61,544 nt of DNA from a virus (Duplodnaviria; Caudoviricetes), in IMG/VR virus record IMGVR_UViG_3300044998_000395, positions 1 to 61,544 of that record; one strand, written 5' to 3'. Under the pieces are notes generated by a model, which searched no databases, was not told where the DNA came from, and saw only the letters and a program-made list of their open reading frames with translations. This document shows, one piece after another, positions 1,678-61,000 of the stretch (the stretch's first letter is position 1; each line of letters starts with the position of its first letter). A program made the translations under genes and the position numbers.

Positions 1678-2106
1678 TCACTTAGGCCACCAGTAGTCCG
1701 CGTCCGGGTCGTCGACCCAGTCAAAGCGCAGGTACCAATCGAGCGTGTCGTCGTCGCCTTCGTATGCCTTGCGCATCAAGTTGGACCGGTGCGAGCTGTG
1801 AAGCCGCTCGTCGCCGAGCCAAGGAGGCTGTGGGCACGGTGGGAAGTTCATCGCCTGCACTTGCGCTTTCACCGAGTCCCTGAAGCCGCGCTCGATCCAC
1901 TCATCGCAGACCGCGAACGTGTACTCAGCCAGCCAGAGCTCGTGTCCCGCCCACATCCGCGTCGCCGGGTGGTTGCGCCAGCCCTTCGTCTCGCCGCGCA
2001 GTGCCTTGAGGATCTGTAGGCACTCTACGCGCTGCTTGCCGAGCCGGCGGTCGTCGAGCGCGGCGGCCGACTGCGCGAAGTTGGCGTATGGCAGGAAGGT
2101 CTGCAT
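1678..2106 (-). CDS. Pyrimidine-dimer DNA glycosylase / endonuclease V-like protein (MSMEG_6728 type)
   Basis: MQTFLPY..F..SA..LD.RRLGKQRVE, W.NHPA..MW.G, PPWLG...H.SHRSNL. Confidence 0.85.
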   Translation of the reverse strand: MQTFLPYANFAQSAAALDDRRLGKQRVECLQILKALRGETKGWRNHPATRMWAGHELWLAEYTFAVCDEWIERGFRDSVKAQVQAMNFPPCPQPPWLGDERLHSSHRSNLMRKAYEGDDDTLDWYLRFDWVDDPDADYWWPK

Positions 2107-5405: not shown

Positions 5406-7400
5406 TCACGCTCGGACGATGTCGAGCTTACCGTACCCGTGCTCAGCCACGGTGTGCTTGTCGTCACAAGCGCTCGCCCAGTCCTTGTCAGACCAGCCGG
5501 CGCCCGCGCGGATGGGTACGCGGAACTTGCGCTTCGTGTCCTCGAGCGACAAGACGAGCCGGGACACGACCTCGGGCGACTTCATGAGTGAAGCCTCGCC
5601 CTTGAACTTCGTTTCGTCGTGCACCGACGCAGCGAGCTTGATTCCCTGGGACTTGACCCAGTCGTTGTAGCGCGGGCTCACCGCGACCGTGCGCTCCTTC
5701 ATGATGTCGGCGGCCGTGCCCTGCACGACGCGGTTGAACGCCACGTGCGCCGCCTTGTCAGGCAGGTGACAGCGACGGCCGTACGCAGTGAACACGTACC
5801 CGCGGTGAAGTGCGTTCGCGGCCGCGCTCTTCGTCGTAGGACGCAGGCCGGGCAGCACCTCGTGGTACTTCTCGAACACCTGCTCGGCTCTGATGCGACA
5901 AGCGGCGTTGAACTGCTGCGGCGTCATACCGTCGCCGAGGCCCTTCATCAGGTCCATGTTGCCGGCCAGCATCGTGGTGACCTTTGCCTTGCCTGCGCCG
6001 TAGCCTACGGCAAAGTTCACGTTCTTAGCCGGCTTACGCGGGATGCCGCACATGTCGGCGACCCACTGGTGGAAGTCAGTGTCGGGATCGCGCTCGTAGG
6101 ACTTGATGGCCTCGAGCGCTCTCGTGTAGTGAACGATGAGGCGGAACTCGATCTGCGAGTAGTCGCATGAGAGGAAGGCCTCGCCCGGACCCGGCAGGAT
6201 GAAGCTCTTTGCTTCCTTGTTCAGCTGCTGTGCGTTCGGGCGCTTGCAGCTCATGCGCCCGGAGCGCACGGCCTGGTTGTAGTCGGGGTGCATGATACCA
6301 CCGACGTTGTGCTCCTGGTACGGCCGCACGAAGAAGGTCAGCAGCGTGTTACGCTTGCGGTAGTGCTGAAGGAGCATAACGACGTTCGTGCGTAGCTCGC
6401 TCGACTTGACGTCCGGGTGCATCAAGTAGTGGGCGAGCGCGTCCTTGTCGAACGACGGGTTGCCGTCCTCGTTGTACTCAAGAACCGGCAAGCCCCAGTG
6501 CGTGCACAGCAGCATAAAGCAGTCCGGGCTACTGGCAGGGTTGACCGCGAACCCGAGAAGCGCGTGCAGCGTCTCCTCGATCTTAGTCAGCTCGAGCAGG
6601 ATCTTCATCTCCGCTTCCTCGAGCTGGTGCTGGTCGACCCGCATGCCCTCGACCTCCATGTCGAACAGCACGGGTGTGAGCAGCTGCTCCGTCTCCCAGA
6701 CCTCGAGACAGTCCTCGGGCATCATGCGCTCGATGTAGTGGTCGAGCTTGCGTGCCGTGAGGGCGTCCTGCCCGGCGTACCGCGCCATGATGTCGATCGG
6801 GACGAGGCCGTAGTCGTTGGCCTTCTTGTTCCTCGGCAGCTTGATCGTGTCGAGGTGCCCGCGCACGCCGTCTTCAAGGTCGGTGATGACCTCGTCCAGC
6901 CACGCCTCCGACAGCGGCTTGAGGCCGTACCCGCCCTTGAACGTGCGGTCACTGTCAAGGAGCTTCGCGCTCGTCGTAAGGCAGCGGAGCCGCCCGCGGA
7001 ACGTGGCACCTTCGCAGTGAGCGAAGTGCGCGTCGAACTTGACGTTTGCGTTCGACCACATGTCGCACGACTCGACGACGTCCTTCATCCATCGCTGGAC
7101 TTGCGGTACGTCGAGGTTGCCCCGCATAGCTGTCCCGTCAGCGAAGCGGTGGCGCATCGGGACGTAGTACGCGTACGGGTGATCGTCTGCCGTGACAGCG
7201 ACGCCGGCGATCTTGTCGCCCTTATACGGGTTGAGCGCCTTCTCGTCTGCCTTGCCCGCGGTGGTCTCGAAGTCCATGAAGAGCTTCTTGGCCCGCGTCA
7301 ACTGCGGGAGCTCAGCCGTGGACTCCACGATGCGTACCATCGTGTCAGTGCCATCCGGGCGCGTAAGAGTGATCATCGTTACCTCATCTGGATGAGACAC
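5406..7400 (-). CDS. polA: DNA polymerase family A with 3'-5' exonuclease domain
   Basis: Exo I DFETT, motif A DYSQIEFR, motif B RKPAKNVNFAVGYG, motif C VHDE. Confidence 0.95.
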   Translation of the reverse strand: MSHPDEVTMITLTRPDGTDTMVRIVESTAELPQLTRAKKLFMDFETTAGKADEKALNPYKGDKIAGVAVTADDHPYAYYVPMRHRFADGTAMRGNLDVPQVQRWMKDVVESCDMWSNANVKFDAHFAHCEGATFRGRLRCLTTSAKLLDSDRTFKGGYGLKPLSEAWLDEVITDLEDGVRGHLDTIKLPRNKKANDYGLVPIDIMARYAGQDALTARKLDHYIERMMPEDCLEVWETEQLLTPVLFDMEVEGMRVDQHQLEEAEMKILLELTKIEETLHALLGFAVNPASSPDCFMLLCTHWGLPVLEYNEDGNPSFDKDALAHYLMHPDVKSSELRTNVVMLLQHYRKRNTLLTFFVRPYQEHNVGGIMHPDYNQAVRSGRMSCKRPNAQQLNKEAKSFILPGPGEAFLSCDYSQIEFRLIVHYTRALEAIKSYERDPDTDFHQWVADMCGIPRKPAKNVNFAVGYGAGKAKVTTMLAGNMDLMKGLGDGMTPQQFNAACRIRAEQVFEKYHEVLPGLRPTTKSAAANALHRGYVFTAYGRRCHLPDKAAHVAFNRVVQGTAADIMKERTVAVSPRYNDWVKSQGIKLAASVHDETKFKGEASLMKSPEVVSRLVLSLEDTKRKFRVPIRAGAGWSDKDWASACDDKHTVAEHGYGKLDIVRA

Positions 7401-7630
7401 ATGCTCTGGACGTGCTCGAGAAGGAAAGTCATCTCGCAGTCAGCCCTGTCAGCCGTGTCAGTGAAACCGTGAATCGTGATGAACGCCTTGTCATCGTGGG
7501 TACGCTCCTTGCGGTACTCGCGCCACTCGTCGAGCGCTTGACGCAGCACCTGCTCGGTACCGCACACGGAGCACGGGCCCCAAGGACGCTCGATCGTCAG
7601 CCTCCAGTATTCCTTCATCGGTTGCTCCAT
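7379..7630 (-). CDS. Hypothetical protein
   Basis: 83-aa ORF filling the gap in the operon. Confidence 0.55.
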   Translation of the reverse strand: MEQPMKEYWRLTIERPWGPCSVCGTEQVLRQALDEWREYRKERTHDDKAFITIHGFTDTADRADCEMTFLLEHVQSMCLIQMR

Positions 7631-8112
7631 GCGATGTTGCCTGCGTCGTCGATGATGAGCGCCGCTTTGTTGAGCTCGTTGATGTACTTGATGGACATCG
7701 TGGCAGACTCGCCCCAGCGCGACCAGTAGTCGTCGTCGCCGTTCATGAACACAAATCGCTCGATGCCAGCCTGCAGCATGAACACGGTGCAGCGATCGCA
7801 GGCAACGCCGCTAGTAACGTACGCTGTGTAGCCGCGCACGGGCTCGTGGCAGTTGAGCACTGCGTTGACCTCACCATGCATGACCCGGCTGTACTTCTCC
7901 GGGCGGTCAACTGCGTCCTCCTCGACCGGGCAGCCGCGCACGAAGCCGTTGTACCCGAGGCCGGCGATCGTACGATCCGGCCTCACGATCACGGTGGCGT
8001 GCTTCGTGCTAGGATCCTTCGACCACGAGCGCACGTGCTTAGCGAGGTCGAGGAACCGCACGTCCCACTTATCGGCTGGCCGTCGTTCGGCGGTTGGCAC
8101 GAGAGAGAACAT
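7615..8112 (-). CDS. dCMP deaminase
   Basis: WD.RFL.LA......SKDPSTK, GYNG, HGEVNA, CDRC zinc motif. Confidence 0.9.
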   Translation of the reverse strand: MFSLVPTAERRPADKWDVRFLDLAKHVRSWSKDPSTKHATVIVRPDRTIAGLGYNGFVRGCPVEEDAVDRPEKYSRVMHGEVNAVLNCHEPVRGYTAYVTSGVACDRCTVFMLQAGIERFVFMNGDDDYWSRWGESATMSIKYINELNKAALIIDDAGNIAWSNR

Positions 8113-8689
8113 CGTCGAGCTCCTGCTGTCGCGCGAGGTACTTATCCACGACTTCCTCCGCGCGTTCGGAGGGCCAGCCGTCCTCGGCGTACATCACGAG
8201 GTCGATGTCGAACTCACGAGACTGGATGATGTCGACATACTTACGGTTGACGCCGAGGATCCCGTCGATCTTGTACATCTCCTCACGGTCCTTGTTCGCG
8301 AACTGGGTCTTGAGAAACTCGTCGGTCCTCGCGACGCAGACGACGGTGAACCCGCCGACTTGCCAGATCGCGGACTGGAGCAGCTTGAGCTCGATGTCGT
8401 TCATCCGCTCCTGCTCAAGGAACTGACGGCCGTAGGCCTGCCTGCTCATGTGAAAGCGGTCCTGCACGACGGCCCTGCGCACGTGCGGGAGGTAGTCCCA
8501 GTAGCGATCGAACGCGACGGGCAGCCGCGTGAAGTGCGAGTAGATGTGCGGGTAGCGCCGGCGGGCGAGCGCCTTCTGGCACTCGAGTGCGAGCGTGGTC
8601 TTACCCACCAAGTCCGGGCCCTCTATTATAAGGATGTTACACACTCCTTTATAAGCGCGATGAGTTCGTTCTTCCAACGCGTTTCCCAA
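8069..8689 (-). CDS. dNMP/thymidylate kinase-like P-loop kinase (true start probably near 8644)
   Basis: IIEGPDLVGKTT P-loop and VQDRF motif. Confidence 0.85.
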   Translation of the reverse strand: MGNALEERTHRAYKGVCNILIIEGPDLVGKTTLALECQKALARRRYPHIYSHFTRLPVAFDRYWDYLPHVRRAVVQDRFHMSRQAYGRQFLEQERMNDIELKLLQSAIWQVGGFTVVCVARTDEFLKTQFANKDREEMYKIDGILGVNRKYVDIIQSREFDIDLVMYAEDGWPSERAEEVVDKYLARQQELDDVLSRANRRTTASR

Positions 8690-8982
8690 ATGGCATCTCG
8701 CGTGCGCTTACTTCGCTTCTTGCCAGTTTGAGCGCGTGACATCTTCTGCTTCGTTTCTTCAGATACTTTTCGTCCAGTCATTGCTGTCCGTTGTCGTTCA
8801 CGTCGTTCTTTAGATTGAATGGCTGCGACTACGGCCGCACGGTGCTCGCTCGCTAGAGGCTTCTTACAGCCGCTCTTCATCAGACCGACGTGCTCTTTCC
8901 AACGAAGAGACGCCTCTTTGCTAGTTATACCTACGTAAGACTTACTGCTCGATTCACAGTGAATGACGTACACGAAGCCCAT
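8626..8982 (-). CDS. GIY-YIG homing endonuclease with NUMOD3-like repeats, probably degenerate
   Basis: FVY-x10-YVG...RW.EH and GRKVSEETKQKMSRAQTGKKRS. Visibly lower GC than the flanks. Confidence 0.7.
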   Translation of the reverse strand: MGFVYVIHCESSSKSYVGITSKEASLRWKEHVGLMKSGCKKPLASEHRAAVVAAIQSKERRERQRTAMTGRKVSEETKQKMSRAQTGKKRSKRTRDAIWETRWKNELIALIKECVTSL

Positions 8983-8985
8983 AAG

Positions 8986-9011
8986 CCGCGGCCTGAGCTC
9001 TCGCCCAGGCC
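8986..9011 (-). terminator. Stable hairpin, possible terminator
   Basis: GCGGCCTGGGC-GAGA-GCTCAGGCCGC just after the 9020 stop. Confidence 0.45.
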
Positions 9012-9019
9012 GCAGGCGG

Positions 9020-9625
9020 TTACTTGGAGTTGCGCGCCTTCAACCCGGACAGAACGTCCAAGGCGCGGGCGCGAACGACTTCGTCTTCGTCGTTGATGAG
9101 CCGTTCAACGAGAAGGAAGATCGCGTCACCGTAGACGAGATTGGCCTCGGCCATCACCGAGATCGCGGTAGCGCGGACTGCCGGCCGCTCGTCGTTGATG
9201 CAGTCCTTGATGAGCTGCTCGAGCCGACCGCGAACCTCGTTCGACAGCTTGGCCTCGAGCAGTCGGTCAGACGCGACAGCCAGCGCCCACCGCGCGACCT
9301 TCTCGGTTGACGCGATGGTGGCGCCCTCGAGGACGAAGGCCTGCTCCGGCGTGATGTCGCCGTAGTACTCCTTGCCCTCGAGGTGCCGGATGAAGGCCTT
9401 CTCGTCGTCCTTCAAGTCGGCGATGACACTGGTCCCGTCGCACTTGTTCTGACAGCCGACCGGGTCCGTGCAGCTCGTGTTACAGCAGTTGTAACACGCA
9501 CGGATGCCGACCTTGCCAGAACACGCCCGGGTGTAGCACTCGGCCCCGGTCTCACCAAGGGCCACGCACGCCACAGCGCCGAGCACGATCCCAACCGCGA
9601 ACAGCAACGATGCGTACTTGCGCAT
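9020..9625 (-). CDS. Secreted or membrane protein with Cys-rich domain and HEAT-like repeats
   Basis: Hydrophobic N-terminus, CYTRAC...CYNCCNTSC....CQNKC, and DERPAVRATA / DEDEVVRARALDVL repeats. Confidence 0.65.
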   Translation of the reverse strand: MRKYASLLFAVGIVLGAVACVALGETGAECYTRACSGKVGIRACYNCCNTSCTDPVGCQNKCDGTSVIADLKDDEKAFIRHLEGKEYYGDITPEQAFVLEGATIASTEKVARWALAVASDRLLEAKLSNEVRGRLEQLIKDCINDERPAVRATAISVMAEANLVYGDAIFLLVERLINDEDEVVRARALDVLSGLKARNSK

Positions 9626-9653
9626 ACGCCGCTCCTTCCTGCGGCCGAAGCCG

Positions 9654-10607
9654 CTACAAGAGGTTGCGCAGAAGATCGGTGGACGGATCCACCGCGAGAG
9701 TTGGCTGCCACTTCTTGCAGCACACGGTCAGCAGCTCCTGCGCGAGGCCACCGACCCTCCCAACGTCTTGCGCGCTCACGTCAGCCGTAGTCCGTGACCG
9801 CATCTCGAGTTGTATCGCCGCGGCGAGGTTGCCCTCGCTCGACGGGTTGAACGCGTATGAGCCCATGCCGTTCGTGTCACGTGCCTCGATGACCTTGTCC
9901 TTGTTGCGGTCGTACACGTGCATCGACCCAGCGACGTGCGTGTAGGTGCCGGGCTCGACGCCGAGCCGCAACGCAACGATGCGCTGGAACGTCGTGAAGG
10001 CGAACACGTCGTACGGCGTACCGAGCCACAAGTCGTTGCTGCGCATCGTCACCACGGAGTGCAGCTTGTCGTTGCGAAGCAGGAACTGGATCGCGACGGT
10101 ACACGGGATGTCGTTGATCTCGCCGGTCTGCCCGTGGACGAGATCGCCATGGTCCCACATGCCGACGAGGCACTGGCGCGTGTTGGGCGACTTCTTGATC
10201 ATTGCCACCGCGGCGTCGAGCTGCGACGGGAACTCGAGCCCGGTCGTCGCCTTCGCTAGAAGGAAGGCAGGCGAGTCCACCCACCGCTTGCCGTAGGCGC
10301 CGTGCGCGCGGTTCGTGCCGGGCTGGGCGAAGCGACGGTATTGCGGAGCGTAGGCCTCGACGACTCGCACGTCGTCGCTGCCGCTCAGGTACCACAGCGT
10401 CTCGGCCGCCGCGTACACGAGCGAGGCCTTGCGCACTGACGCGAGGCAGTGGTCGATGTTGCTCAGGCGGAAGCCGAAGCCGGTGAGCTCCGTACAACCG
10501 CCGTCACGCGACTCGAGCCGGCTGCCGTGCTTGAAGATGTCGTGAGCGATGCCAACCCACGCCTCGTTCATGGTGTCATACGTGATCATGAGACCTCGCA
10601 TCAGCAC
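9654..10607 (-). CDS. Thymidylate synthase-family enzyme of dCMP-modifying type (dCMP hydroxymethylase-like)
   Basis: ETLWYLSG, catalytic DIPCT, and RSNDLWLGTPYD with Asp at the specificity position (as in T4 gp42) rather than Asn. Also GSMHVY. Confidence 0.85.
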   Translation of the reverse strand: MLMRGLMITYDTMNEAWVGIAHDIFKHGSRLESRDGGCTELTGFGFRLSNIDHCLASVRKASLVYAAAETLWYLSGSDDVRVVEAYAPQYRRFAQPGTNRAHGAYGKRWVDSPAFLLAKATTGLEFPSQLDAAVAMIKKSPNTRQCLVGMWDHGDLVHGQTGEINDIPCTVAIQFLLRNDKLHSVVTMRSNDLWLGTPYDVFAFTTFQRIVALRLGVEPGTYTHVAGSMHVYDRNKDKVIEARDTNGMGSYAFNPSSEGNLAAAIQLEMRSRTTADVSAQDVGRVGGLAQELLTVCCKKWQPTLAVDPSTDLLRNLL

Positions 10608-10824
10608 AGGAAGCGAGTTCGTACACGCGCTCGTCTCCTGGGAAGAATGACTCGGTGCGAACGTAGTAAGATCCCTTGTACGAAAGGATCTTCCAGTCGT
10701 GGTTGCTCGTCATAGGGCCGTGAAGCTTGTCGTACAGTGCCTCTGGCGGCAGGGCCTTGAACCCGTCCTGCCTACGACCTGGCGGCATCTCACGCTTACG
10801 ACAGAGGATGATCTTCTCGATCAT
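10576..10824 (-). CDS. Hypothetical protein
   Basis: ATGA-coupled 82-aa ORF. Confidence 0.55.
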   Translation of the reverse strand: MIEKIILCRKREMPPGRRQDGFKALPPEALYDKLHGPMTSNHDWKILSYKGSYYVRTESFFPGDERVYELASCADARSHDHV

Positions 10825-12002
10825 GCTGGCTTCTCCGGACAGTAGTCGGTCATGAGGAAAGACTTCTCGACCTTGCCGTGCGAGTCGTCACCGTGCCACT
10901 GGCCAGTGGACTTGTAGTACGACGACTCCCAGTCCTCGCCACCCCACGAGTCCTCGAGGTACAGCTTTGCCTGCTCCGCGAGCCACGTGCCGACGGCCGG
11001 CACAATGCCCTTGCCGATCTGACCGATGGGCATCTCACCAAGAGGAGTGACGCCTTCTGGCCAGCCCATGAGCAACGACAGCTCTCGCAGCGTGAGCGTA
11101 CGGTCAAGTGTAGGGTGAACGAACCGGCCGGCCGAGCTGCTGATCACCGGCATGAACCCGTCACCGCGCACACGCATCAGCGAGTGCATTGAGAAGGGCA
11201 TGTCGGACGACCGCTCCCGCCACGTGCGGGCGTACTTTGCTGACACCCGCTCGAGCACGTCGTACTTCTCGCGAGCGAATCGGTTGAGGTCCCATCCTTG
11301 CGGCAGGTGCGGCATGACCCGCCACTCGTCGTCCGTCTTGTCGTTCGCGTGGTCCGGCCCGTAGATCGACTTCTTGCCGAACCGCGAGAACTGCACGTCG
11401 GTCTTGAGCAGGTCGTCACGGAAGAGAACGTCCCCGCAGGTCGCGTGCCGCTCGAGCAACGGCGGTGGCTTGATGTTGAACGGCTTATCCGCCTTGTAGG
11501 CCATGAAGAAATAGCGCTTGCGGTGCTGCGGGTTGCCGAACGACGCCGCGTTGAGCATGAGGTGCGCGATGCGGTAGCCGTTCGGCACGAAGATCTTGTC
11601 ACGCAGGTAGTCGAGCAGCTCGCGACCGACGGTCATCGCCTGCTGAACCGATTCCCAGCACACGAGCTGGTAGCCGTGCTTCACGCCGTAGTGGCATAGA
11701 TCGTGGATGTCACGGGTAGGCGCAGACCACGCCCCGTGAACGGCCTCGTCGTGTCCAGCGGTCGTGCAGCTGAAGCCCGTGCACCGCGGGTTACCGAACA
11801 GCATCACGGCGCCGGGCGATGGCGACGGCCAGTCCTCCCAGGTGTTACCCACGATGAAGTCGATGCCCGCCGCCTTGACGGTCTTTTCGCCGAGGCCGTG
11901 GATCTCGAGCTGTCTTGGTACGTCCATCACCTCGCGCACACCGAAGGAGAACCCGCCGGCGAACACGTGGCAGCCGTCAGCGACGAATCTTGGCATCTTC
12001 AA
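10821..12002 (-). CDS. Divergent DNA cytosine-C5 methyltransferase-like protein
   Basis: Motif I-like VFAGGF, IV GNPRCTGFS, VI WESV, VIII PQHRKRYF, IX RTLTLRELSLLMGWP, X QIGKGI. Confidence 0.8.
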   Translation of the reverse strand: MKMPRFVADGCHVFAGGFSFGVREVMDVPRQLEIHGLGEKTVKAAGIDFIVGNTWEDWPSPSPGAVMLFGNPRCTGFSCTTAGHDEAVHGAWSAPTRDIHDLCHYGVKHGYQLVCWESVQQAMTVGRELLDYLRDKIFVPNGYRIAHLMLNAASFGNPQHRKRYFFMAYKADKPFNIKPPPLLERHATCGDVLFRDDLLKTDVQFSRFGKKSIYGPDHANDKTDDEWRVMPHLPQGWDLNRFAREKYDVLERVSAKYARTWRERSSDMPFSMHSLMRVRGDGFMPVISSSAGRFVHPTLDRTLTLRELSLLMGWPEGVTPLGEMPIGQIGKGIVPAVGTWLAEQAKLYLEDSWGGEDWESSYYKSTGQWHGDDSHGKVEKSFLMTDYCPEKPA

Positions 12003-12471
12003 GTACCTTCTTCAAGTTCGGCGGCTGATACGACGCGCCCTTGTTCCGGAGGCGAGGGTCGTCAACGCCGGGCGTGCGGACCGCCTTGGTCATGTTGCTG
12101 CGGTGGATCTCTTCGCCTACCTCGTCGAGCGGGATGCCGAACGCGACCGCCGCACCGTGCACGACGTAGTCAAGGTCGCCGAGGCCGTCGGCCAACTTCA
12201 CCTCATCGCCCTCGGCGAGGGCATGCATGACTTCGGCCGCCTCCTCGAGGATCAAGTGAGCCCGCATCAGCCGGCTGTTGAACGGTAAGTCTTTACCGCC
12301 CGCGTTGATCGTGCCCTTGGCCAGCTTCACGGACAGGCTGTGCAGGATCTTGCCCGCGAGCTCGAGTTCGTACGACGCAGCGTCGCACTTACAATCATCG
12401 ACCGCGAGGTCGCGATCGAAGCCATGCTTGTCATGGAACTCACGAACCAGCTGGGTCATCGTCTTCTGCAT
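11977..12471 (-). CDS. MazG-like all-alpha NTP pyrophosphohydrolase (dUTPase/dCTPase candidate)
   Basis: LILEEAAE...ADGLGDLDYVVHG...EIHRSNMTK. Confidence 0.85.
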   Translation of the reverse strand: MQKTMTQLVREFHDKHGFDRDLAVDDCKCDAASYELELAGKILHSLSVKLAKGTINAGGKDLPFNSRLMRAHLILEEAAEVMHALAEGDEVKLADGLGDLDYVVHGAAVAFGIPLDEVGEEIHRSNMTKAVRTPGVDDPRLRNKGASYQPPNLKKVLEDAKIRR

Positions 12472-13420
12472 ACTCAGGATCTCCTTTGATGTTCGACTGC
12501 ACGTCTTTCATGATCACGGCGATCTCGCCGTCAGCGAACCGGTTGCACCGCATGCGGAAGATGTGGTTCCACTGGGCGAGCGACGCGGAGAAGATCATCT
12601 GCGTCTCGAGGCCCATTGGGAGCATCAGCCGCGCAGCGCCGCGGGCCTGCTTGCGAGCGAAGTCCAGTGTCTCCTTCTTCTCATCGACGAGCCAGGTCTC
12701 GAGCTTCTTGACGATCAAGTCGTAGGCGGATTGGCAGCCGCCCTTCACGCCGTCGATGTACTCCTCGAACTCGAAGTCGTGCTCGTCGAAGTACTCGCGA
12801 AGCAGCGGGTGATCGAGGATCGGCGATGACGACTCATCAACGTACCGCGTGCTTCGCTGGCTGATGGCTGACCAGTCGCCGTGCCTGACCTGCTCATGCG
12901 ACCAACCGCGGGAGCCGCTGATCCACGCGCTGACCCAGACCTCGTTGACGTTCGCAGGCTTGACGAGCCGGCATGTCGTGTCGGACGTCAGCACAAGCGG
13001 CACGACCTGCGGCGCGAGGTTGTAAGCCTCCTGGGCGATGAGCGTGTACAGCGGGCAGGCCGTGTCCCACTCGAGCACGTGCCGGAGGTTGAGCACCATG
13101 CGAACCTTGCCGCGCGGCCTGTGCAGCCACAGCGCCGGCTTGTTCCAGCACAGCTCTGACCACTGCGGCTTCCACGTGTTGAACTCGAGCACGAACGTGC
13201 AGTGCTCGTACACGCTGAGGTGTCCGACTTCCTTGACGTGCTTGTGCCAATCGGCCGAAGACCGGCCCGTGCCAAGCGAATCGTAACACACGCGGCCTGC
13301 GACCTCGGCCAGTAGCTCGAGCGGAGTACCGACGAGCTGGCCCGGCTTGGGCTGGCCCATGGCCTTCGGAACGTTGAAGAAGTCAGGCATCGCTGTGTTG
13401 TATACTGTCTCAGAACTCAT
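12440..13420 (-). CDS. thyX: FAD-dependent thymidylate synthase
   Basis: AGRVCY, GHLSVYEH, SRGWSHEQVRH...SQRSTRY, ARLMLP. Confidence 0.9.
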   Translation of the reverse strand: MSSETVYNTAMPDFFNVPKAMGQPKPGQLVGTPLELLAEVAGRVCYDSLGTGRSSADWHKHVKEVGHLSVYEHCTFVLEFNTWKPQWSELCWNKPALWLHRPRGKVRMVLNLRHVLEWDTACPLYTLIAQEAYNLAPQVVPLVLTSDTTCRLVKPANVNEVWVSAWISGSRGWSHEQVRHGDWSAISQRSTRYVDESSSPILDHPLLREYFDEHDFEFEEYIDGVKGGCQSAYDLIVKKLETWLVDEKKETLDFARKQARGAARLMLPMGLETQMIFSASLAQWNHIFRMRCNRFADGEIAVIMKDVQSNIKGDPEYAEDDDPAGS

Positions 13421-16337
13421 GCTTGGGTTCCTTCAGGAAGTCGGGACGGGTAACACGCTTCATGTCGTCGCTCTCCTTGAGCTTACGCAGGAGCGTGATA
13501 AACTCGGGGTTCTTACGATACGACCGGCCGTCACGGATCAGCGCGTGCTTACGAACGAGGAAGGACAGGAGGTCAGTCGCCTCCTGCTTGTCCCACCCGG
13601 TCCAGTCGCACATGTCACGGAGCTCGATCTCGTCGGTGTGCAGGACTTGATCAACGAAGTCGCCCGGGAACGGGGTCGTCAGCACGCGCTTGCCGATCTG
13701 CTCACCGTCGTTCAGCTGCCGGGTCTTGGCATACGCTTGTGAGAAGTCGAGGTAGCCGACGGTGCGTGAAGAGTATACCCGGTCCAGAGTCTTTGCGATG
13801 TAGCGCACGTGACACTCGCGAACCAGCACGTCCTGCGGCGTGGTGCCGAAGGAAGCCGTCCTGCAGGCGAGGGCTGCCGCTAGCCGGGCGATCTTGAACC
13901 GCGTGCTGCCGCGGTCGAGTACCGGGATGGCGTCCACGTATCGACTGCACAGCTCGTTCGTTACCTCGAGGACGGCTGCTTGCGCATCCGGGTCGAACCG
14001 GACTTGCTCCTCCGTGCGAGTCCACGCCCAGAGCACGCAGCGCTTGCAGAGCTCGGCCGTGTACGTATGCTCGACGACCGGGCGGGACGCCGTGAGCATG
14101 TTGAGCCGTGAGGAATCAACCTCTTGAGCCGATACGACAAGGACCGCATCGAATCGACGCAGGTCTTCCGGTCCACCAATGAGCTCCCGGACCGCCTCGA
14201 TGCCATAGGAGTACGCAGCCACTGGTTGATCGCTACGAGGATTTGACAGTGCAAGCAGACGGGTACGGGCGTGCGTGCGGCGCTTCTCGATCTTGTCGAT
14301 CTCGGCGATGCCTGAAGACCGCATGTCCGTGAGCTTGCTGATCGTCTCGACTGGCGCACCCTTGAGCTCCTCGAGGACGACGAGGCGACGGTCGTGCCGC
14401 GGGATAACGCCCCACGTGACCATCCACCTCGCGCCCAGCTGCTGCAACCCGCCGAGCAAGCCGGCGGCCGACGCGTTCTTAACCTCGACCTTCTCACCAA
14501 GGCCGTAGTGCTCCATCATACGTCGCGTCGTTTCCGACTTGCCCTGCGCCGAGTCGCCTACGATGAGTACCTCGCTCCAGCCCTTCTCGACTCGACCATC
14601 GAACGTGATCAGCAGCGGGCTGTGATACACGAGGTCGACGAAGAGGTGTAGGTCAGGTCGATCGAAGATGCGCGTGACGTTGGCAGCGAAGTCGCTGTAC
14701 ACAGACGCGAGCTTCGCGTCGATACCGTCCACCGTCCACTCCGACGGGCGGAAGACCTCGAGCTCCTCGAGCTCGTCGTCGGTCGGCTTGTAGGTGTTGA
14801 GTGCGTCCTCGGCCGGCTCAGCCTCGCTGATCAGGAGGATGGCTTGCTGGTTACGAGGGTGCGGGAACAGTCGCCCTGTGAACTTGTAGGCGACGTTCAT
14901 CTCAAGACCGTGACTGACGGTCAGCGCCGGGATCATCACGCTGTCTGACGAGCGGCTGCCGATCTCGAGCTGCGGACTGATCCGAACGTCCTCGACGTTG
15001 TAGTGCGTCTTGACGTGGAACTGCGCGCTCTTGCACGGCGGGATCTTGAGGCCTTCCCGGATCGAGTCGCGCTTGGTCTTCTTGCCCGTGTTGACGAGGT
15101 CAAGGATCGCGGGCGACTCGGCGCTGATGGTCAGCTGCACGAGGTCGTCGCTTGCGTCGTGAACGAAGACTGGGCAGTTCACGCAGAACGGCTGGTTCCG
15201 GTCGCACTCGACCGCGACGTCCTTCGGGATGATGTACGGCGTCGTGTCCATCGCCGTGATGATGGCCTTCGTACACACGCGTCGCCGCGTGTACTCGGCC
15301 TTCGTCGACTCGGCGAGATGGACGTCAGTCAACTCGGCCGGCTCGTCCTGCGAAGCGCCTTGCTTAGGCACCCACACCTTAGCCCGCTCGAGCAACGCGA
15401 CGAAGTCAGGCCCAGTCTTGTTCTCTTGACCGAAGTAATCGTTGACGTCGCCGTGCGGGTACTTGTCCGAAGACAAGTCCTTGCACAGCTCGGCCGTCGC
15501 GTCGTACACGGCGTCAGCGTAGTTCTTGAGCCGCGCGGCTACCTTACCGGTGCCAACGATACCGCCTTCGTCGATGTCGTAGCAGACCCAGACCTTCTTA
15601 CCGCGGAACCGCGGGCTGAACTCGGCTTCCCAGTTGTCCTCGCCGCCGCACTGCGTCATAGCGCCCCAGCCGAGCTGGTTCAAGCGCTGCATGACGGCCG
15701 CTGCCTTCATCTCGCCGCCGAGCAAGACGATCTTATCGAACTTGAGCTGGTCGATCGGGTAGAGTCGGTTGCGCCCGCACCCGCGCGTGTTGCGCATCTT
15801 CTCCTTGCCCGGTGCGCCCGGCTTGTACCGCCGGACATTCACGACGTGACCGTGCTCGTTGTAGACCGGGATCGTGATCCGGTTGTTCTCGTCAACGCCG
15901 AGCCGCAGCTTGCGGATCGTCTCGTCGCTGATGCCGCGGTCGTACAGCTCACGCTTGAGCGGACCGGCGTCCCAGATCTTCTCATGGTACTTCTCGACCA
16001 CGGTCGGGTCGATCGTGCCGCCAGACTCGACACCGTACTCCTTACGGATGTACTCGATGATCGTCTTGCGGTTGGTCTTCGTCGCGATGGCAATGAAGCT
16101 GATGAAGTCGCCTGACTCGCCGCAGCCGGCGGCCATGCACTTCCAGACTTTCTTCTTGACGTTGATGCCGCAAGAAGGCGTCTTGTCAGCGTGTGCTGGG
16201 CAGCAGCACTTGACCTCCTCGTCGCCAGCGAACTCGTACTTCCAGCCCATGCGGTCGAGCTCGGCCAGTACGTTGATCGCCTGGAGTTCTGCGTAGATGT
16301 CGTTACTGCGTTCTGTCATGGTTCCGTCAATGAACAA
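13410..16337 (-). CDS. Primase-helicase fusion (CHC2 Zn finger + TOPRIM + MCM-like AAA+ helicase)
   Basis: CPAH.DKTPSC...WKC..AGC, TOPRIM CYDIDEGG, Walker A GDSAQGKS, SAAGLLG, Walker B VVLEE, ALSNP, Arg finger LRRFD. Confidence 0.85.
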   Translation of the reverse strand: MFIDGTMTERSNDIYAELQAINVLAELDRMGWKYEFAGDEEVKCCCPAHADKTPSCGINVKKKVWKCMAAGCGESGDFISFIAIATKTNRKTIIEYIRKEYGVESGGTIDPTVVEKYHEKIWDAGPLKRELYDRGISDETIRKLRLGVDENNRITIPVYNEHGHVVNVRRYKPGAPGKEKMRNTRGCGRNRLYPIDQLKFDKIVLLGGEMKAAAVMQRLNQLGWGAMTQCGGEDNWEAEFSPRFRGKKVWVCYDIDEGGIVGTGKVAARLKNYADAVYDATAELCKDLSSDKYPHGDVNDYFGQENKTGPDFVALLERAKVWVPKQGASQDEPAELTDVHLAESTKAEYTRRRVCTKAIITAMDTTPYIIPKDVAVECDRNQPFCVNCPVFVHDASDDLVQLTISAESPAILDLVNTGKKTKRDSIREGLKIPPCKSAQFHVKTHYNVEDVRISPQLEIGSRSSDSVMIPALTVSHGLEMNVAYKFTGRLFPHPRNQQAILLISEAEPAEDALNTYKPTDDELEELEVFRPSEWTVDGIDAKLASVYSDFAANVTRIFDRPDLHLFVDLVYHSPLLITFDGRVEKGWSEVLIVGDSAQGKSETTRRMMEHYGLGEKVEVKNASAAGLLGGLQQLGARWMVTWGVIPRHDRRLVVLEELKGAPVETISKLTDMRSSGIAEIDKIEKRRTHARTRLLALSNPRSDQPVAAYSYGIEAVRELIGGPEDLRRFDAVLVVSAQEVDSSRLNMLTASRPVVEHTYTAELCKRCVLWAWTRTEEQVRFDPDAQAAVLEVTNELCSRYVDAIPVLDRGSTRFKIARLAAALACRTASFGTTPQDVLVRECHVRYIAKTLDRVYSSRTVGYLDFSQAYAKTRQLNDGEQIGKRVLTTPFPGDFVDQVLHTDEIELRDMCDWTGWDKQEATDLLSFLVRKHALIRDGRSYRKNPEFITLLRKLKESDDMKRVTRPDFLKEPKHEF

Positions 16338-55115: not shown

Positions 55116-56237
55116 TCACTCGAGCCATTCGACACCTCCCATCTTCTCGCCCGCCAGCGCCCTCTCGAGGGCCGAAAAGTCGGGCGTCGTCTTCTGGCGC
55201 AGATGCTCTACCCATTCGCGGTCGCTCCAGTGGCCCCACGGCTCACCCGCCTTGATTCGTGACGGGTGGTCGAGCGGGACGTACTTTGTCCGGAGGTCGT
55301 AGGTATGTGTGTCGCCGACGACCGGCCTGGGCGTGCAACCAGCGAGCACGTACTCGCGGAGCTTGCCCGTGTTGAAGTTCGACTCGATCGGGATCATCGG
55401 GCCGGATGAGTAGTGCCGGAGCTTGTCCTGCACCTCGTCATGCTTCAGGAGTCCACGGTGCTTGTCCGCCCACCCGGTCTCCTCCCAGCCAGACCCGTAG
55501 ATCGCGAAGTCCTCAGTACAGCTGTTGAGCACAGCCTCCCAAGTCGCGCCGCGACGACCATTGCCGTTCACGCGCTTGTCATTGATGTGGCTGTGGGCCA
55601 GCACGATGATCGCAGGCACCTGTGCGACGGCATAGGGCTCGAGGTACGACATCCCGTAGGACCACCAGTTCTCGGCCGAGGCGTCGACCTCGACGAGGCG
55701 CTGCTTACGCCCGCGCACGATGCGGGTGAACTCGCTTGAACGCTGCGAGAGCAGGCTGGCCGGGACGGCCCGGGGCCAGTAGTGCATCTCGTGGTCCTTC
55801 GGGTAGTTGCGCGGGTCGTTGATGACCACGTGCCTCGGGAGATCGAGCGCATGGCAGGCCTTGAGGCAAGGCATTACCGTGCGGGTCGCCCACATCTGGC
55901 ACCGCACGCCCCACTCGTTCGCTGGGTCGCTGATCGTAGGCGCCGCGCCTGCGACGTTGAGGCAGACGTCCGGCTTCCAAGCGGCGAGCTCGGCGATGGC
56001 AGCGTCCGCCCGCTCGTGGAATAGCGACGGGTCGTCGAGGTCGTCGAGCCCGCTCATGTTCACGTTGAACACGGGACAGCCGAAGTCGCCCTGCGCCATG
56101 CCGAAGACGCAGACCTCGTGCTGCGAGTCCTTGAGGTAGCGCAGCACGCCGAGCGCGTCTTGGTTGCCGGCGACGGGCGAGGCCTTGTGGTTGTCGGCGT
56201 ACAGGACTGTGCCCGTACGCATCAGAGCGATCCTCAT
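55116..56237 (-). CDS. GT-B glycosyltransferase resembling T4 DNA beta-glucosyltransferase
   Basis: Colinear motifs versus T4 BGT as recalled: MRIALMRTG/MKIAIINMG, INDPR/FTDIR, LLSQ/VISQ, IYG/FFG, NFNTGKLRE/NFITLRVWE, YD/FD. Confidence 0.7.
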   Translation of the reverse strand: MRIALMRTGTVLYADNHKASPVAGNQDALGVLRYLKDSQHEVCVFGMAQGDFGCPVFNVNMSGLDDLDDPSLFHERADAAIAELAAWKPDVCLNVAGAAPTISDPANEWGVRCQMWATRTVMPCLKACHALDLPRHVVINDPRNYPKDHEMHYWPRAVPASLLSQRSSEFTRIVRGRKQRLVEVDASAENWWSYGMSYLEPYAVAQVPAIIVLAHSHINDKRVNGNGRRGATWEAVLNSCTEDFAIYGSGWEETGWADKHRGLLKHDEVQDKLRHYSSGPMIPIESNFNTGKLREYVLAGCTPRPVVGDTHTYDLRTKYVPLDHPSRIKAGEPWGHWSDREWVEHLRQKTTPDFSALERALAGEKMGGVEWLE

Positions 56238-58489: not shown

Positions 58490-58605
58490 CGGCCGTCTAG
58501 CAGGCGGTAGTGAATCACGCCGTCGCGCACAGCCTCGATCTCACGGGTCACGCCGGTCGGCGTGAACTCCCACTCGGAACCGACCTCAGGCAAGTTCGCA
58601 TGCAC
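58390..58605 (-). CDS. Small hypothetical protein
   Basis: GGAGG RBS. PEVGSEW SH3-like beta pattern. Confidence 0.45.
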   Translation of the reverse strand: MHANLPEVGSEWEFTPTGVTREIEAVRDGVIHYRLLDGRCAGRRCWLTEEEWRQSRSCYRPRSTGGVATGR

Positions 58606-61000
58606 CTCCGCTGCAAGCAGGATCAGATGCCCGGCTCGACGTCTCGCTGATCACGGAGTAGTCGACCGGGCGGTAGTTCTCGATCAGGTACTGCCACCGC
58701 GCCTCGTCAGCGGGAGTCGTGACCTCCTCACGTGGCATAAACGGGATGCCCTTATCGCCCATGCGCGGGAGGAAGGCCATCGCCGACACGCGCCGCCGCT
58801 CGTCGTAGAAGCGACGAGTCACCTCGTCCCACTCGTCCTCGCTCACGACGACCGTGCAGCTGACGTTGTGCGACAGCCCAGGGATGATCTGCTCATCGCG
58901 GGCGCCGGGCATGACCCACGATTCGTAGACTGTGAAGATCCGCTCCATAAAGTCGGACGCGGGCATCTGCTTGACAGTCTCGGCGGCGTCGGGCGCCTTC
59001 ACGCAGAACGTGATGCACCAGTTGCCATCCGGCTTGGTCTCCACCATGTGCGGGTTGACTTCCTTGAACCGCTGCGCCACGAGCGAGGTAGGCGACTCAG
59101 TGATGCGGCGGAAGTAGCGCCGCGCGTGGTGCGGATGAATGCCGCTACCGACGGTACCGAGCACGAGCGACGCCGTGCCACTCGGCTTGACCGTCGTGCA
59201 CCGCGCCGATGGCCGGATCCCTACCTGGTCAGCGACGCGGGCGTTGACCTGCTTGACGATCGTCGCGCCGCGACGCAGGACGTCTGGGTCGAACGCGACC
59301 ATCGGTCGATCGCACATGCCTGTGAGGCCAACACCGATGAGAGCCTCGCGCTCAGTGATGCGCTCGGTCACCGGGCCGAGGTACGGCATCTTCGTGAACG
59401 TGGCCTGCAGCGTGCCGAGCGTCGCAGCGGCGTGACAAGCCTGCAGGAACTGCGCCTCGTCCTCGCATGCCGCGACGTTGACCTCGCACAGGTTGCAGAA
59501 CTGGAAGCCGGTGTCATGGCCATAGAAGCCGATCGCGACCGCGTCGCTGCTGTTCATCGACACGACCGTCGGACCGGTCGAGCGGGCCACTTCGTAGGCG
59601 CGGTAGTCATAGTCGAGCGAACGGTCGACCTCGTGCTGGATCATACCCGGCCGTTCGATGACGCCCTGAGACGAACCAAGGCTCAGCTCGAACAGCTTGC
59701 CGAGGTCTGTGCCAGCCGGCCAGTACCTCACACGCTCGTTGGGTAGCGTCAGCTTCGGGTACATCCCGATCTCGGCGCACGGGTTGCAGCCGCAGTCAGG
59801 GTGGGCCAGCCACACGACGCCCGGGTCGCCGTACGCCTTTGCGAGCTTGATGAGGCGCTCGACGTATTCACGTGCCGGTGGCTCGTCCTTCAAGCAGCCG
59901 GCGCTGATGTTCGCCATGCGCCGCCAGAAGTTCTTACCCGACCATTCGTAGTTGCCCGGCACCTTGGCGTGCGCCATCTCGCCATCCTCGGGCGAGAAGA
60001 TCGCGATGAGCGAGCTGCGGCGGATGCCGCCGGCCAGCACCGCCTCGGCGATCTTACACACGAGGTCGAACGCCTCGATGGGTCGCATCTTGCGGAACGC
60101 ACACTCGTCGAGCTGGACTCGGATCTGGTCGTGCAGGCGCTTGAGCGGCAGGTGGCCCGGCGCCCGCCCACCCGACGACTTGAGCTTGGCGCCCTTGGGT
60201 CGGATCTGCGAGTAGTCGAACTCGACGTAGTCGCCGGTCACGAAGTACGACCGCACGAGCTCGCCGACCGAGTTGGCCCAGCCCTCGATGTCGTCAGTGA
60301 CGGTGTGGTGCCGCACGCGGTCGGTGTCGACCTTCATCACGTCGGGCAACTGCTCGACGTGACGATACTGCACGCTAAAACCGACGCCGCACCCGGCGAG
60401 CAGGCAGTAGAAGATCTCCTGGAAGACGCGGAGGCGGTTGATGAGCGTGAACGAGCAGTTGTACATCCGCACGTTGTGCTGGAAGACGCCGGCACCACCG
60501 AACTGCATGCCGCGCATCGACCCGAGCACCTTATTGCCGCGCACGAGGTCGAAGACACCGTCGAGCTCGAGGTACGGAAAGCGCTTGCGGAACATCGTCT
60601 CGTTGCGCTCGATCGTGTCGGACCACGACTCGAACTTGGCGAGGTCCTCACGGTACATTCCGTACTTGCTGGCGGCGACGAACTCGCTGACGGCACGCGG
60701 GTCCGGGTCCAGCCGCTGTTCCCGCACGGCACGCCGCTTGTCGCGGAACGACGTGTAGTGGTCGGCCGTGCCCGGGAACCCGGAGTGCACGAGCTCCTTG
60801 ATGACGGCCGTCTCGAGGTCTCCGATCGAGACGTCGCCCGAGAACTGTGCAGCCACGCGGGCCGCCATGTCGTTCACGCCCTCGGGCACGTGGCCCAGCG
60901 AGTCGTTGAACGACTTGAGCAGCGCGTTGACGATCTTGCGCTGGTCGAACTTCTGGAGAGTACCGTCTCTCTTTATGACGCGAGTTGGTCCCAAGTGCAC
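58586..61000 (-). CDS. nrdJ: Class II (B12-dependent) ribonucleotide reductase with ATP-cone
   Basis: VIKRDG ATP cone, YNCSF, GCGVGFSVQ, AGGIRRSS, NPCAEI, CNLCEVN, TVKPSGT, C-terminal ACSGGACE. No small-subunit gene present. Confidence 0.92.
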   Translation of the reverse strand: MHLGPTRVIKRDGTLQKFDQRKIVNALLKSFNDSLGHVPEGVNDMAARVAAQFSGDVSIGDLETAVIKELVHSGFPGTADHYTSFRDKRRAVREQRLDPDPRAVSEFVAASKYGMYREDLAKFESWSDTIERNETMFRKRFPYLELDGVFDLVRGNKVLGSMRGMQFGGAGVFQHNVRMYNCSFTLINRLRVFQEIFYCLLAGCGVGFSVQYRHVEQLPDVMKVDTDRVRHHTVTDDIEGWANSVGELVRSYFVTGDYVEFDYSQIRPKGAKLKSSGGRAPGHLPLKRLHDQIRVQLDECAFRKMRPIEAFDLVCKIAEAVLAGGIRRSSLIAIFSPEDGEMAHAKVPGNYEWSGKNFWRRMANISAGCLKDEPPAREYVERLIKLAKAYGDPGVVWLAHPDCGCNPCAEIGMYPKLTLPNERVRYWPAGTDLGKLFELSLGSSQGVIERPGMIQHEVDRSLDYDYRAYEVARSTGPTVVSMNSSDAVAIGFYGHDTGFQFCNLCEVNVAACEDEAQFLQACHAAATLGTLQATFTKMPYLGPVTERITEREALIGVGLTGMCDRPMVAFDPDVLRRGATIVKQVNARVADQVGIRPSARCTTVKPSGTASLVLGTVGSGIHPHHARRYFRRITESPTSLVAQRFKEVNPHMVETKPDGNWCITFCVKAPDAAETVKQMPASDFMERIFTVYESWVMPGARDEQIIPGLSHNVSCTVVVSEDEWDEVTRRFYDERRRVSAMAFLPRMGDKGIPFMPREEVTTPADEARWQYLIENYRPVDYSVISETSSRASDPACSGGACELA

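Follow-up and report, generated by a model that had tools for sequence, protein, structure and literature searches.

A predicted T4-style 5-hydroxymethylcytosine nucleotide pathway with a conserved methyltransferase-fold partner gene in a 61-kb siphovirus

The stretch of DNA analyzed here, hereafter the window, is a complete IMG/VR virus record of 61,544 bp (IMGVR_UViG_3300044998_000395) with direct terminal repeats and a G+C content of about 63%, in which the minus strand holds nearly all genes. PHROG matches revealed a structural module of the siphovirus type, with a tape measure, tail assembly chaperone, major head protein, portal, and terminase, and no PHROG match to a sheath was found among the window proteins. 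The system in question is a cluster of nucleotide metabolism genes on the minus strand, which is flanked by a family A DNA polymerase and a primase-helicase and contains a thymidylate synthase (TS) homolog, the predicted deoxycytidine monophosphate (dCMP) hydroxymethylase. Between positions 5406 and 16337, the gene order is polymerase, an 83-aa open reading frame (ORF), dCMP deaminase, kinase, GIY-YIG fragment, HEAT-repeat ORF, TS homolog, an 82-aa ORF, a C5-cytosine methyltransferase (MTase)-fold protein, a MazG-like pyrophosphatase, a ThyX-like protein, and the primase-helicase (Table 1). The original prediction for this DNA, made from the sequence alone, had named six pathway genes beside the DNA polymerase (deaminase, kinase, TS homolog, MTase-like gene, MazG, and ThyX) and had read them as a route to a modified cytosine nucleotide. 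Analysis of ORFs, Pfam domains, and PHROGs located all six on the minus strand within the boundaries given in Table 1, and the two peptides quoted for the TS homolog, DIPCT and RSNDLWLGTPYD, were both found in its translation.

Table 1. Genes of the nucleotide cluster and other features of the window, with the evidence for each.
Feature	Coordinates	Strand	Evidence
Family A DNA polymerase, presumed user of the modified dNTP	5406-7400	-	PF00476 E 5e-37; phrog_17
Small 83-aa ORF	7379-7630	-	ORF list
dCMP deaminase, zinc-dependent	7615-8112	-	PF00383 E 5e-12; HxE and CxxC zinc motifs
P-loop kinase, putative (hydroxymethyl-)dNMP kinase	8069-8689	-	GPDLVGKT motif
GIY-YIG/NUMOD3 homing-endonuclease fragment	8626-8982	-	PF01541 3e-6; PF07460 9e-6
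HEAT-repeat ORF, 201 aa	9020-9625	-	PF13646 3e-6
TS-fold predicted dCMP hydroxymethylase	9654-10607	-	PF00303 E 1.6e-26
Small 82-aa ORF	10576-10824	-	ORF list
C5-cytosine methyltransferase-fold protein, Lys (K331) at the cofactor-selecting position	10821-12002	-	PF00145 E 4.9e-12
MazG/PRA-PH pyrophosphatase, putative dCTP/dUTP pyrophosphatase	11977-12471	-	PF01503 E 3.8e-13
Divergent ThyX, putative dTMP source	12440-13420	-	PF02511 E 2.2e-21
Primase fused to MCM-type helicase	13410-16337	-	Pfam/PHROG
GT-B fold glycosyltransferase-like protein, 373 aa, candidate DNA (5hmC) glycosyltransferase	55116-56237	-	Structure matches
APH-like phosphotransferase, 293 aa	56633-57514	-	Language-model features; weak RIO1 Pfam match
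T4 endonuclease V-type pyrimidine dimer glycosylase	1678-2106	-	PF03013 E 8e-26
Ribonucleotide reductase with ATP cone and B12-type insertion domain	58586-61000	-	Pfam/PHROG
ATP-dependent DNA ligase	60973-61533	-	Pfam/PHROG

The TS homolog was aligned with T4 gp42, RB69 gp48, RB69 td, the only TS homolog of Xp12, SPO1 gp29, M6 gp58, the phiW-14 enzyme, and E. coli ThyA, together with 120 database homologs of 36–92% identity; residues are given in E. coli ThyA numbering. In the tabulated active-site columns, the window protein has R21, E58, Y80, Y94, R126, Q127, D143, C146, T147, M165, R166, S167, D169, G173, D177, H207, and Y209, and T4 gp42 agrees with it at 11 of these 17 columns, namely D143, C146, T147, M165, R166, S167, D169, G173, D177, H207, and Y209. 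Relative to the E. coli enzyme, the columns that define product and substrate read L143D, C146, H147T, Q165M, S167, D169, G173, and N177D, all as in gp42. At column 177, the window segment RSNDLWLGTPYD lies opposite RSNDVVFGFRND of T4 and RSCDVFLGLPFN of E. coli, and the Cys of DIPCT is aligned with E. coli C146; the argument from an Asn177-to-Asp exchange beside an intact catalytic Cys, with which the modified-cytosine reading began, thus holds. D143, C146, D169, G173, and D177 were kept in 120 of 120 homologs, and T147 and M165 in nearly all of them. A homolog with 92% identity (P0001) begins at MITYD, and the ATG at 10589 may be the true start of the window gene.

The residue pattern can be compared with published rules for this enzyme family. 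According to the available text of Lee et al. (NAR 2026, PMC13326640), the N177D exchange leads to a preference for dCMP, in T4-like enzymes and in MilA a hydroxymethyl product goes along with an acidic residue at 143, and D169N is the mark of the flavin-dependent 5-hydroxy-dCMP synthases. The part of the MilA study consulted (Zhao et al. 2016, PMC5175136) associates Ser and Arg at the equivalents of 167 and 126 with deoxyribose, and Ala176 and Lys133 of MilA with ribose; the window protein has the deoxyribose-type Ser167/Arg126 pair, whereas MilA has Ala/Lys. In a search of the PDB, the best match of the TS homolog was the cytidine monophosphate (CMP) hydroxymethylase MilA (3e-30) and thymidylate synthases reached at best 1e-15, which places the window protein closer to MilA than to any thymidylate synthase in the PDB by 15 orders of magnitude. 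Since the full gp42 signature is present and the signatures of the Xp12, RB69, and deoxyuridine monophosphate (dUMP)-type enzymes are absent, the product is most likely 5-hydroxymethyl-dCMP. The original prediction had left 5-methyl- and 5-hydroxy-dCMP beside it; the hydroxymethyl product is the one favored by the gp42 pattern, and the other two are disfavored by the absence of N143/P147/L165 and of D169N, respectively. The case shows that, with published active-site rules, sequence alone can be enough to tell apart products of the hydroxymethyl, hydroxy, and methyl types.

Phylogenetic trees of the TS family, obtained with quick IQ-TREE runs with SH-aLRT support only, placed the window protein inside a large clade that is made up of uncultured sequences and does not include the dUMP hydroxymethylases. 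The latter (SPO1 gp29, M6 gp58, and the phiW-14 enzyme) formed their own clade with 99% SH-aLRT support. This phylogeny, which had been proposed as a check, left T4, RB69, and Xp12 on long, poorly resolved branches. The branch of T4 gp42 was very long (3.7–5.6 changes per column) and poorly placed; the assignment to the gp42 functional type therefore rests on the active-site residues.

The matches of the other enzymes in the cluster differed in quality. The PDB matches of the deaminase, 7fh4 (5e-15) and 2w4l (4e-13), are both dCMP deaminases. The MazG-like protein was best matched in the PDB by the MazG-like protein DR2231 of Deinococcus (1e-8), and in Xp12 a stretch homologous to it lies directly beside the TS homolog. 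The P-loop kinase was also considered as a 5-hydroxymethylpyrimidine DNA kinase, an assignment that was rejected as the protein showed no similarity to M6 gp54 and no PF18723 match; in Pfam scans, no PF18723 protein was found among the window proteins. The ThyX-like protein could be aligned with Mycobacterium tuberculosis ThyX (7e-18) in two parts, which are split by an insert of about 87 residues. The canonical ThyX motif is RHRxxSxxxxSxR; the window protein has RHGDWSAISQRSTRY, with the pattern RHG..S....S.R, one residue longer. Its TIGR02170 score was 66.8 bits against the NCBIfam equivalog cut-off of 87.9, and the only close relative, from the related locus L018, has the same RHG and the same insert of about 87 residues. 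The claim that a separate ThyX covers the synthesis of thymidine monophosphate (dTMP) is favored by the Thy1 domain and disfavored by the RHG, the insert, and the score below the cut-off. Because the protein is divergent, it is regarded only as the likely source of dTMP.

The genomic context of the TS homolog was studied in related viral loci. A single-protein scan of viral contigs retrieved no relatives, and an alignment-based scan was required; in IMG/VR this yielded 434 relatives, from which the 80 best loci were retained together with flanks of up to 10 kb and collapsed to 63 non-redundant groups at ≥95% identity of the TS proteins. Neighbors were counted from protein clusters built by all-against-all BLASTP. 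In the 63 groups, the TS gene was accompanied by the kinase in 53, by polymerase A within 10 kb in 47, by MazG in 44, by dCMP deaminase in 36, by the MTase-like gene in 26, and by ThyX in 1. Direct tblastn (E 1e-5) found the deaminase in just 2 of the 80 loci; since this protein is short and divergent, the count from the PF00383 cluster (36/63) is preferred. The usual gene order was MazG-(MTase-like)-TS-kinase, and the core module is common in uncultured phages. Among deposited genomes, no match was obtained when the nucleotide sequence of the cluster was compared with 50,697 phage records, and the Manatee Spring siphovirus MW202657 has the replication and nucleotide module in common with the window. 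Dinoroseobacter phage R5C and Pseudanabaena phage Pan1, related to the window by head genes, were considered as cultured models and rejected, as both are without the TS homolog and the MTase-like gene.

Taken together, we estimate a probability of about 0.72 that the cluster encodes a pre-replicative pathway in the style of T4, by which 5-hydroxymethyl-deoxycytidine takes the place of deoxycytidine in the phage DNA. In this pathway, the MazG-like enzyme would return dCTP (and dUTP) to the monophosphate. The Cys of the TS-fold enzyme equivalent to C146 would then attack C6 of dCMP, with a one-carbon unit provided by methylene-tetrahydrofolate; because Asp replaces the water-excluding Leu143, water could add to the exocyclic methylene and would yield 5-hydroxymethyl-dCMP. 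The P-loop kinase would form the diphosphate and the host nucleoside diphosphate kinase the triphosphate, for incorporation by the family A polymerase, while the dCMP deaminase, which gives dUMP, and the ThyX-like enzyme would keep up the supply of dTMP. After replication, the 5-hydroxymethylcytosine (5hmC) would probably be glycosylated by the GT-B enzyme encoded 43 kb away, and the embedded C5-MTase-fold enzyme would act on cytosine-type bases in DNA in a manner that the scheme does not specify.

Four other explanations of the cluster were weighed against this pathway. The TS homolog could be a dCMP methyltransferase of the Xp12 type, so that 5-methylcytosine would be made before replication. 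Xp12 is likewise a siphovirus of about 64 kb with high G+C, has a dCMP deaminase as well as the MazG-like stretch beside its TS homolog, and shares Asp177 with the window enzyme. However, its pattern in the alignment is N143, P147, and L165, as opposed to the gp42-like D143 (in the window and all 120 homologs), T147, and M165 (in nearly all), and in the tree Xp12 lies outside the clade to which the window protein belongs; we consider this explanation quite improbable. A flavin-dependent 5-hydroxy-dCMP synthase of the RB69 and DLP3 type, feeding O-glycosylated 5-hydroxycytosine, would agree with Asp177, with the acidic residue at 143, and with the glycosyltransferase-like gene in the genome. 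The model of that gene product also matches the glycosyltransferase of phage HY126, which, according to the available text of PMC13326640, has a homologous flavin-dependent 5-hydroxy-dCMP synthase. RB69 gp48 has E143, N169, and V173 in the alignment, whereas the window protein and 120 of 120 homologs have D169 and G173; with the diagnostic D169N absent, the 5-hydroxycytosine route is extremely unlikely.

The possibility that the phage modifies thymidine, as in SPO1, M6, or phiW-14, by means of a dUMP hydroxymethylase is hardly credible either. The substrate could come from the dCMP deaminase, and in some related loci a protein with the helical domain of the 5-hydroxymethyldeoxyuridine (5-hmdU) DNA kinase follows the TS gene directly, but the three dUMP hydroxymethylases have Asn at both 147 and 177 against Thr147 and Asp177 in the window and form the separate clade described above, and the window kinase does not resemble M6 gp54, with PF18723 absent from the Pfam scans. 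Ordinary nucleotide salvage with an inactive or redundant TS homolog is also very improbable. Under this explanation, the DNA would be canonical except for site-specific 5-methylcytosine made by the MTase-like enzyme, which would account for a C5-MTase-fold gene that needs unmodified cytosine, and dTMP would already be supplied by ThyX. Against it stand the catalytic and substrate-binding residues of the TS fold, all of which are kept across the 120 homologs, and the MazG-TS-kinase order conserved over the 63 non-redundant loci; both indicate that selection maintains an active enzyme other than a thymidylate synthase.

Several observations weigh against the 5-hydroxymethylcytosine pathway itself. 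T4, RB69, and Xp12 lie on long branches, and the window protein was not placed with T4 gp42 in the trees; in the text of PMC13326640 available, moreover, the rule on acidic residues at 143 is given merely as a correlation. The family matches of the kinase were weak, with 3e-6 for the PHROG thymidylate kinase, 4e-4 for TIGR00041 (below the cut-off), and 0.017 for YorR in the PDB. The dCTP specificity of the MazG-like protein is only presumed, because the annotation of DR2231 goes no further than a MazG-like nucleoside triphosphate pyrophosphohydrolase, and the second Arg of the ThyX motif is absent owing to the RHG in place of RHR. In addition, an enzyme acting on C5 of cytosine would be odd if every C5 were occupied, which hints that the replacement may be partial, and the Pfam family DNA_methylase was not enriched in the modified contigs of the MetaGPA study, as far as its supplement file 2 records (PMC8670742).

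The MetaGPA study also bears on how new the pathway is. In the available text, TS(Asp177), PRA-PH, and dCMP deaminase are linked to metagenomic phage contigs shown experimentally to be cytosine-modified, and residues 177 and 147 set the modified contigs apart (Yang et al., eLife 2021, PMC8670742). Since this association is already published, the core pathway is of a known kind. The idea of T-even-like logic in a siphovirus is likewise not new. The new parts are the Lys-type MTase-fold gene upstream of the TS gene and its co-occurrence with the GT-B-like gene.

For the MTase-fold protein, an AlphaFold2 model based on 22 sequences reached a mean predicted local distance difference test (pLDDT) score of 91.6. 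The top Foldseek matches of this model were DNMT1/MET1, M.HaeIII, M.HhaI, a prophage MTase, and CmoX, with a probability of 1.00 for DNMT1, HaeIII, and HhaI. The motif IV Cys occurs as NPRC in 120 of 120 homologs, with an Arg inserted between Pro and Cys, and the motif VI Glu as (W/F)ESVQQ, including the form WESVQQ, in 111 of 120. The family also keeps the QxRxR of motif VIII and motif IX, and the Glu of motif II is invariant in the alignment of 22 rows. Motif I reads FAGGF instead of the canonical S-adenosylmethionine (SAM)-binding FxGxGG; in M.HhaI it is FAGLGGF, compared with which FAGGF would be two residues shorter. In a profile-to-PDB alignment, K331 (QIGKGIVP) lies opposite Asn304 of M.HhaI (QFGNSV), the Asn of 3g7u (QIGNSV), and Arg350 of CmoX (RVGRMV), and the QxxKG pattern is present in 112 of 120 homologs; the motif X Asn is thus replaced by Lys. 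In sum, the fold and the catalytic motifs IV, VI, and VIII of a canonical SAM-dependent C5-MTase are present, and the Gly-Asn of motif X and the FxGxGG of motif I are absent.

At least 279 metagenomic members of this family were found, every one of them on a contig of phage size; a search of 50,697 deposited phage genomes gave merely two weak partial matches. The MW202657 gene L002:17012-18121, annotated as "modification methylase HaeIII," has NPPC and SKGV, lies 7 kb from the TS gene of that phage, and is by sequence a distant relative of the Lys-type family. MW202657 was the only deposited genome found with both such a relative and the TS(Asp177) module. Of the 31 related IMG/VR loci that carry the MTase-like gene, 27 have it immediately upstream of the TS gene, in the sense that both matches are on one strand and ≤160 bp separate the end of the MTase-like match from the TS match. 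Literature searches returned no paper on a C5-MTase partner of a dCMP hydroxymethylase.

The cationic residue at the cofactor-selecting position recalls CmoX, in which Arg350 contacts carboxy-SAM at its carboxymethyl group (Yang et al., Nat Commun 2025, PMC12783734, available text). A paper in ACS Chem Biol (2026) reports, in its accessible part, that M.MpeI uses carboxy-SAM best with a cationic side chain at N374 and that K and R mutants of M.CviPI at the structurally equivalent Y205 still methylate with SAM. The family differs from CmoX, which usually goes together with a phage CmoA, in having NPRC and not SPPC, and Lys and not Arg, although the cationic side chain is still in common. A CmoX-like carboxymethylation with phage-encoded cofactor supply was considered and rejected: CmoA (TIGR00740) was found in none of the 24 records carrying the MTase-like gene, 11 of which are ≥90% complete, and an asparagine-synthetase-type ligase in none of 50 records.

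The glycosyltransferase-like gene forms a second locus, at which the original prediction had hinted by calling the nucleotide cluster the first, and with which this gene fits. The 373-aa ORF had no Pfam or PHROG match. Its AlphaFold2 model (7 sequences) had a pLDDT of 79.5, and a Foldseek search of the PDB gave top matches that were all GT-B enzymes, the HY126 glycosyltransferase included. The global template modeling (TM) scores of these PDB comparisons were modest (0.34–0.50), which is usual for GT-B proteins with their two domains. In the ESM Atlas, the model for the identical 373-aa sequence aligned with GT4 clusters over more than 300 residues with TM-scores of 0.62–0.65. A search of whole records, covering the window and 49 of the 63 representatives, detected GT-B homologs in 10 of the 21 related records that carry the MTase-like gene and in 0 of the 28 that lack it; among records ≥90% complete, the counts were 7 of 10 and 0 of 14, respectively. 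The GT-B-like protein is therefore regarded as a candidate 5hmC DNA glycosyltransferase, as its structural models suggest. At a distance of 400 bp from this gene lies the APH-like gene, with a language-model score of 0.96–0.97 to phage APH clusters. Its product was considered as a DNA-base kinase and left without assignment: it is APH-like by language-model features only, and relatives occur in 2 of 80 loci.

In related loci that lack the MTase-like gene, other genes are found beside the TS gene. A PF18723 protein (5-hmdU DNA kinase helical domain) lies right after TS in 13 of 53 such loci and in 0 of 27 with the MTase-like gene, and a TET-associated-glycosyltransferase (TAGT)-like protein occurs in 11 of 53 and 0 of 27, respectively. 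On the TS tree, the loci that carry the MTase-like gene are dispersed among several subclades of poor resolution, and the nearest neighbor of the pair formed by the window and L018 is L027, a locus of the kinase/TAGT kind. These patterns, in counts that are not phylogenetically independent, suggest interchangeable post-replicative decoration modules on a shared core that would produce 5hmC. In L027 (10974-13193) and 12 other loci, PF18723 (E 8e-39) and then PF20691 (E 3e-8) were detected after a TS homolog of the Asp177 type. The arrangement hints at a 5-hydroxymethylcytosine DNA kinase pathway, of which no published description was found in literature searches. A class I SAM-methyltransferase (PF13489, E 4e-14) was further observed about 1 kb upstream of TS in L032 (8168-9043) and 5 others, that is, in 6 of the 53 loci without the MTase-like gene.

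Several functions of the MTase-fold protein were considered. It is possibly, and only tentatively, a SAM-dependent methyltransferase for cytosines that escape replacement. Action on 5hmC or a 5hmC derivative appears somewhat doubtful; this option draws partly on in vitro work that reportedly showed C5-MTases to couple aldehydes to cytosine and to exchange the hydroxyl group on 5hmC. The use of host carboxy-SAM is unlikely, and the same word fits the idea that the protein does something else. On a broader view, the Lys-type enzyme could be the middle step of a three-enzyme cytosine hypermodification by the dCMP hydroxymethylase, the MTase-fold enzyme, and the GT-B protein, and not a plain methyltransferase; we put this forward as a speculative reading. 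In one version of it, the catalytic Cys would activate 5-hydroxymethylcytosine already present in DNA and Lys331 would act on the C5 substituent; in another, the enzyme would use an anionic SAM analog such as host carboxy-SAM. If true, the three-enzyme scheme would give a cytosine derivative not yet described, and the MTase/GT-B pair would be an alternative to the pair of 5-hydroxymethylpyrimidine DNA kinase and TAGT-like protein in the same slot of sister phages.

With respect to its significance, the nucleotide pathway would place the phage in an already known class, whose members prepare 5-hydroxymethylcytosine for their DNA ahead of replication. Of more use is the conserved, uncharacterized MTase-fold partner, which has a cationic residue at a position known to switch the use of cofactors, is located between the MazG and dCMP hydroxymethylase genes, and is tied to the GT-B protein. 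Should it act on 5hmC or use a non-methyl donor, it would represent a new route of cytosine hypermodification and a new DNA-labeling enzyme.

Two further ORFs lie within the cluster. The GIY-YIG/NUMOD3 ORF, which does not belong to the pathway, overlaps the start of the kinase by 64 bases and looks like the remnant of a homing endonuclease. The HEAT ORF, between the TS and kinase genes, has a hydrophobic N-terminus, a Cys-rich stretch, and C-terminal HEAT repeats. Neither has a counterpart in any of the 80 related loci, and in relatives of the window the kinase gene follows the TS gene directly; the two ORFs are regarded as lineage-specific insertions between TS and kinase.

Comparison with known systems demonstrated likenesses and differences in each case. 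The modules of the MetaGPA study contain the same three Pfam families together, and the window enzyme has the D177 and T147 described there. The available text ties those contigs to a 5hmC carbamoyltransferase, none of which was detected among the window proteins in Pfam scans, and the main text, in the form available, does not use the word methyltransferase or discuss a C5-MTase partner (PMC8670742). CmoX, a phage DNA cytosine C5-carboxymethyltransferase (PDB 8yf3; PMC12783734), and the engineered M.MpeI N374K have a cationic residue at the same position as the Lys of the window protein, which shares with CmoX the C5-MTase fold and the catalytic Cys, Glu, and Arg. The available text on CmoX uses the SPPC motif to define that enzyme and does not mention "thymidylate synthase" (PMC12783734), whereas the window gene lies inside a putative dCMP hydroxymethylase operon.

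MilA, the CMP 5-hydroxymethylase of mildiomycin biosynthesis (PDB 5jnh, 5b6d), is the best relative of the window TS homolog among solved structures by sequence, and the two have in common Asp at the equivalents of 143 and 177 and a C-terminal extension past the TS core. Ala176 and Lys133 of MilA favor ribo-CMP, unlike the Ser and Arg of deoxy-specific enzymes found in the window protein, and MilA belongs to an antibiotic cluster, whereas the window gene stands in the context of phage DNA replication. A further parallel, in enzyme roles, is the T4 pathway, in which gp42, the dNMP kinase gp1, the dCTPase/dUTPase gp56, the dCMP deaminase cd, td, and the alpha- and beta-glucosyltransferases correspond to the window genes one for one; the gp42 active-site signature and a GT-B glycosyltransferase-like gene are both present in the window. 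By sequence, however, its TS homolog is only distantly related to gp42, its pyrophosphatase is of the MazG/PRA-PH type and not of the dUTPase type, and its dTMP would come from a ThyX-like and not a ThyA-type enzyme. The window further differs from T4 in its family A polymerase, in the extra C5-MTase-fold gene inside the operon, and in being a siphovirus of 61 kb.

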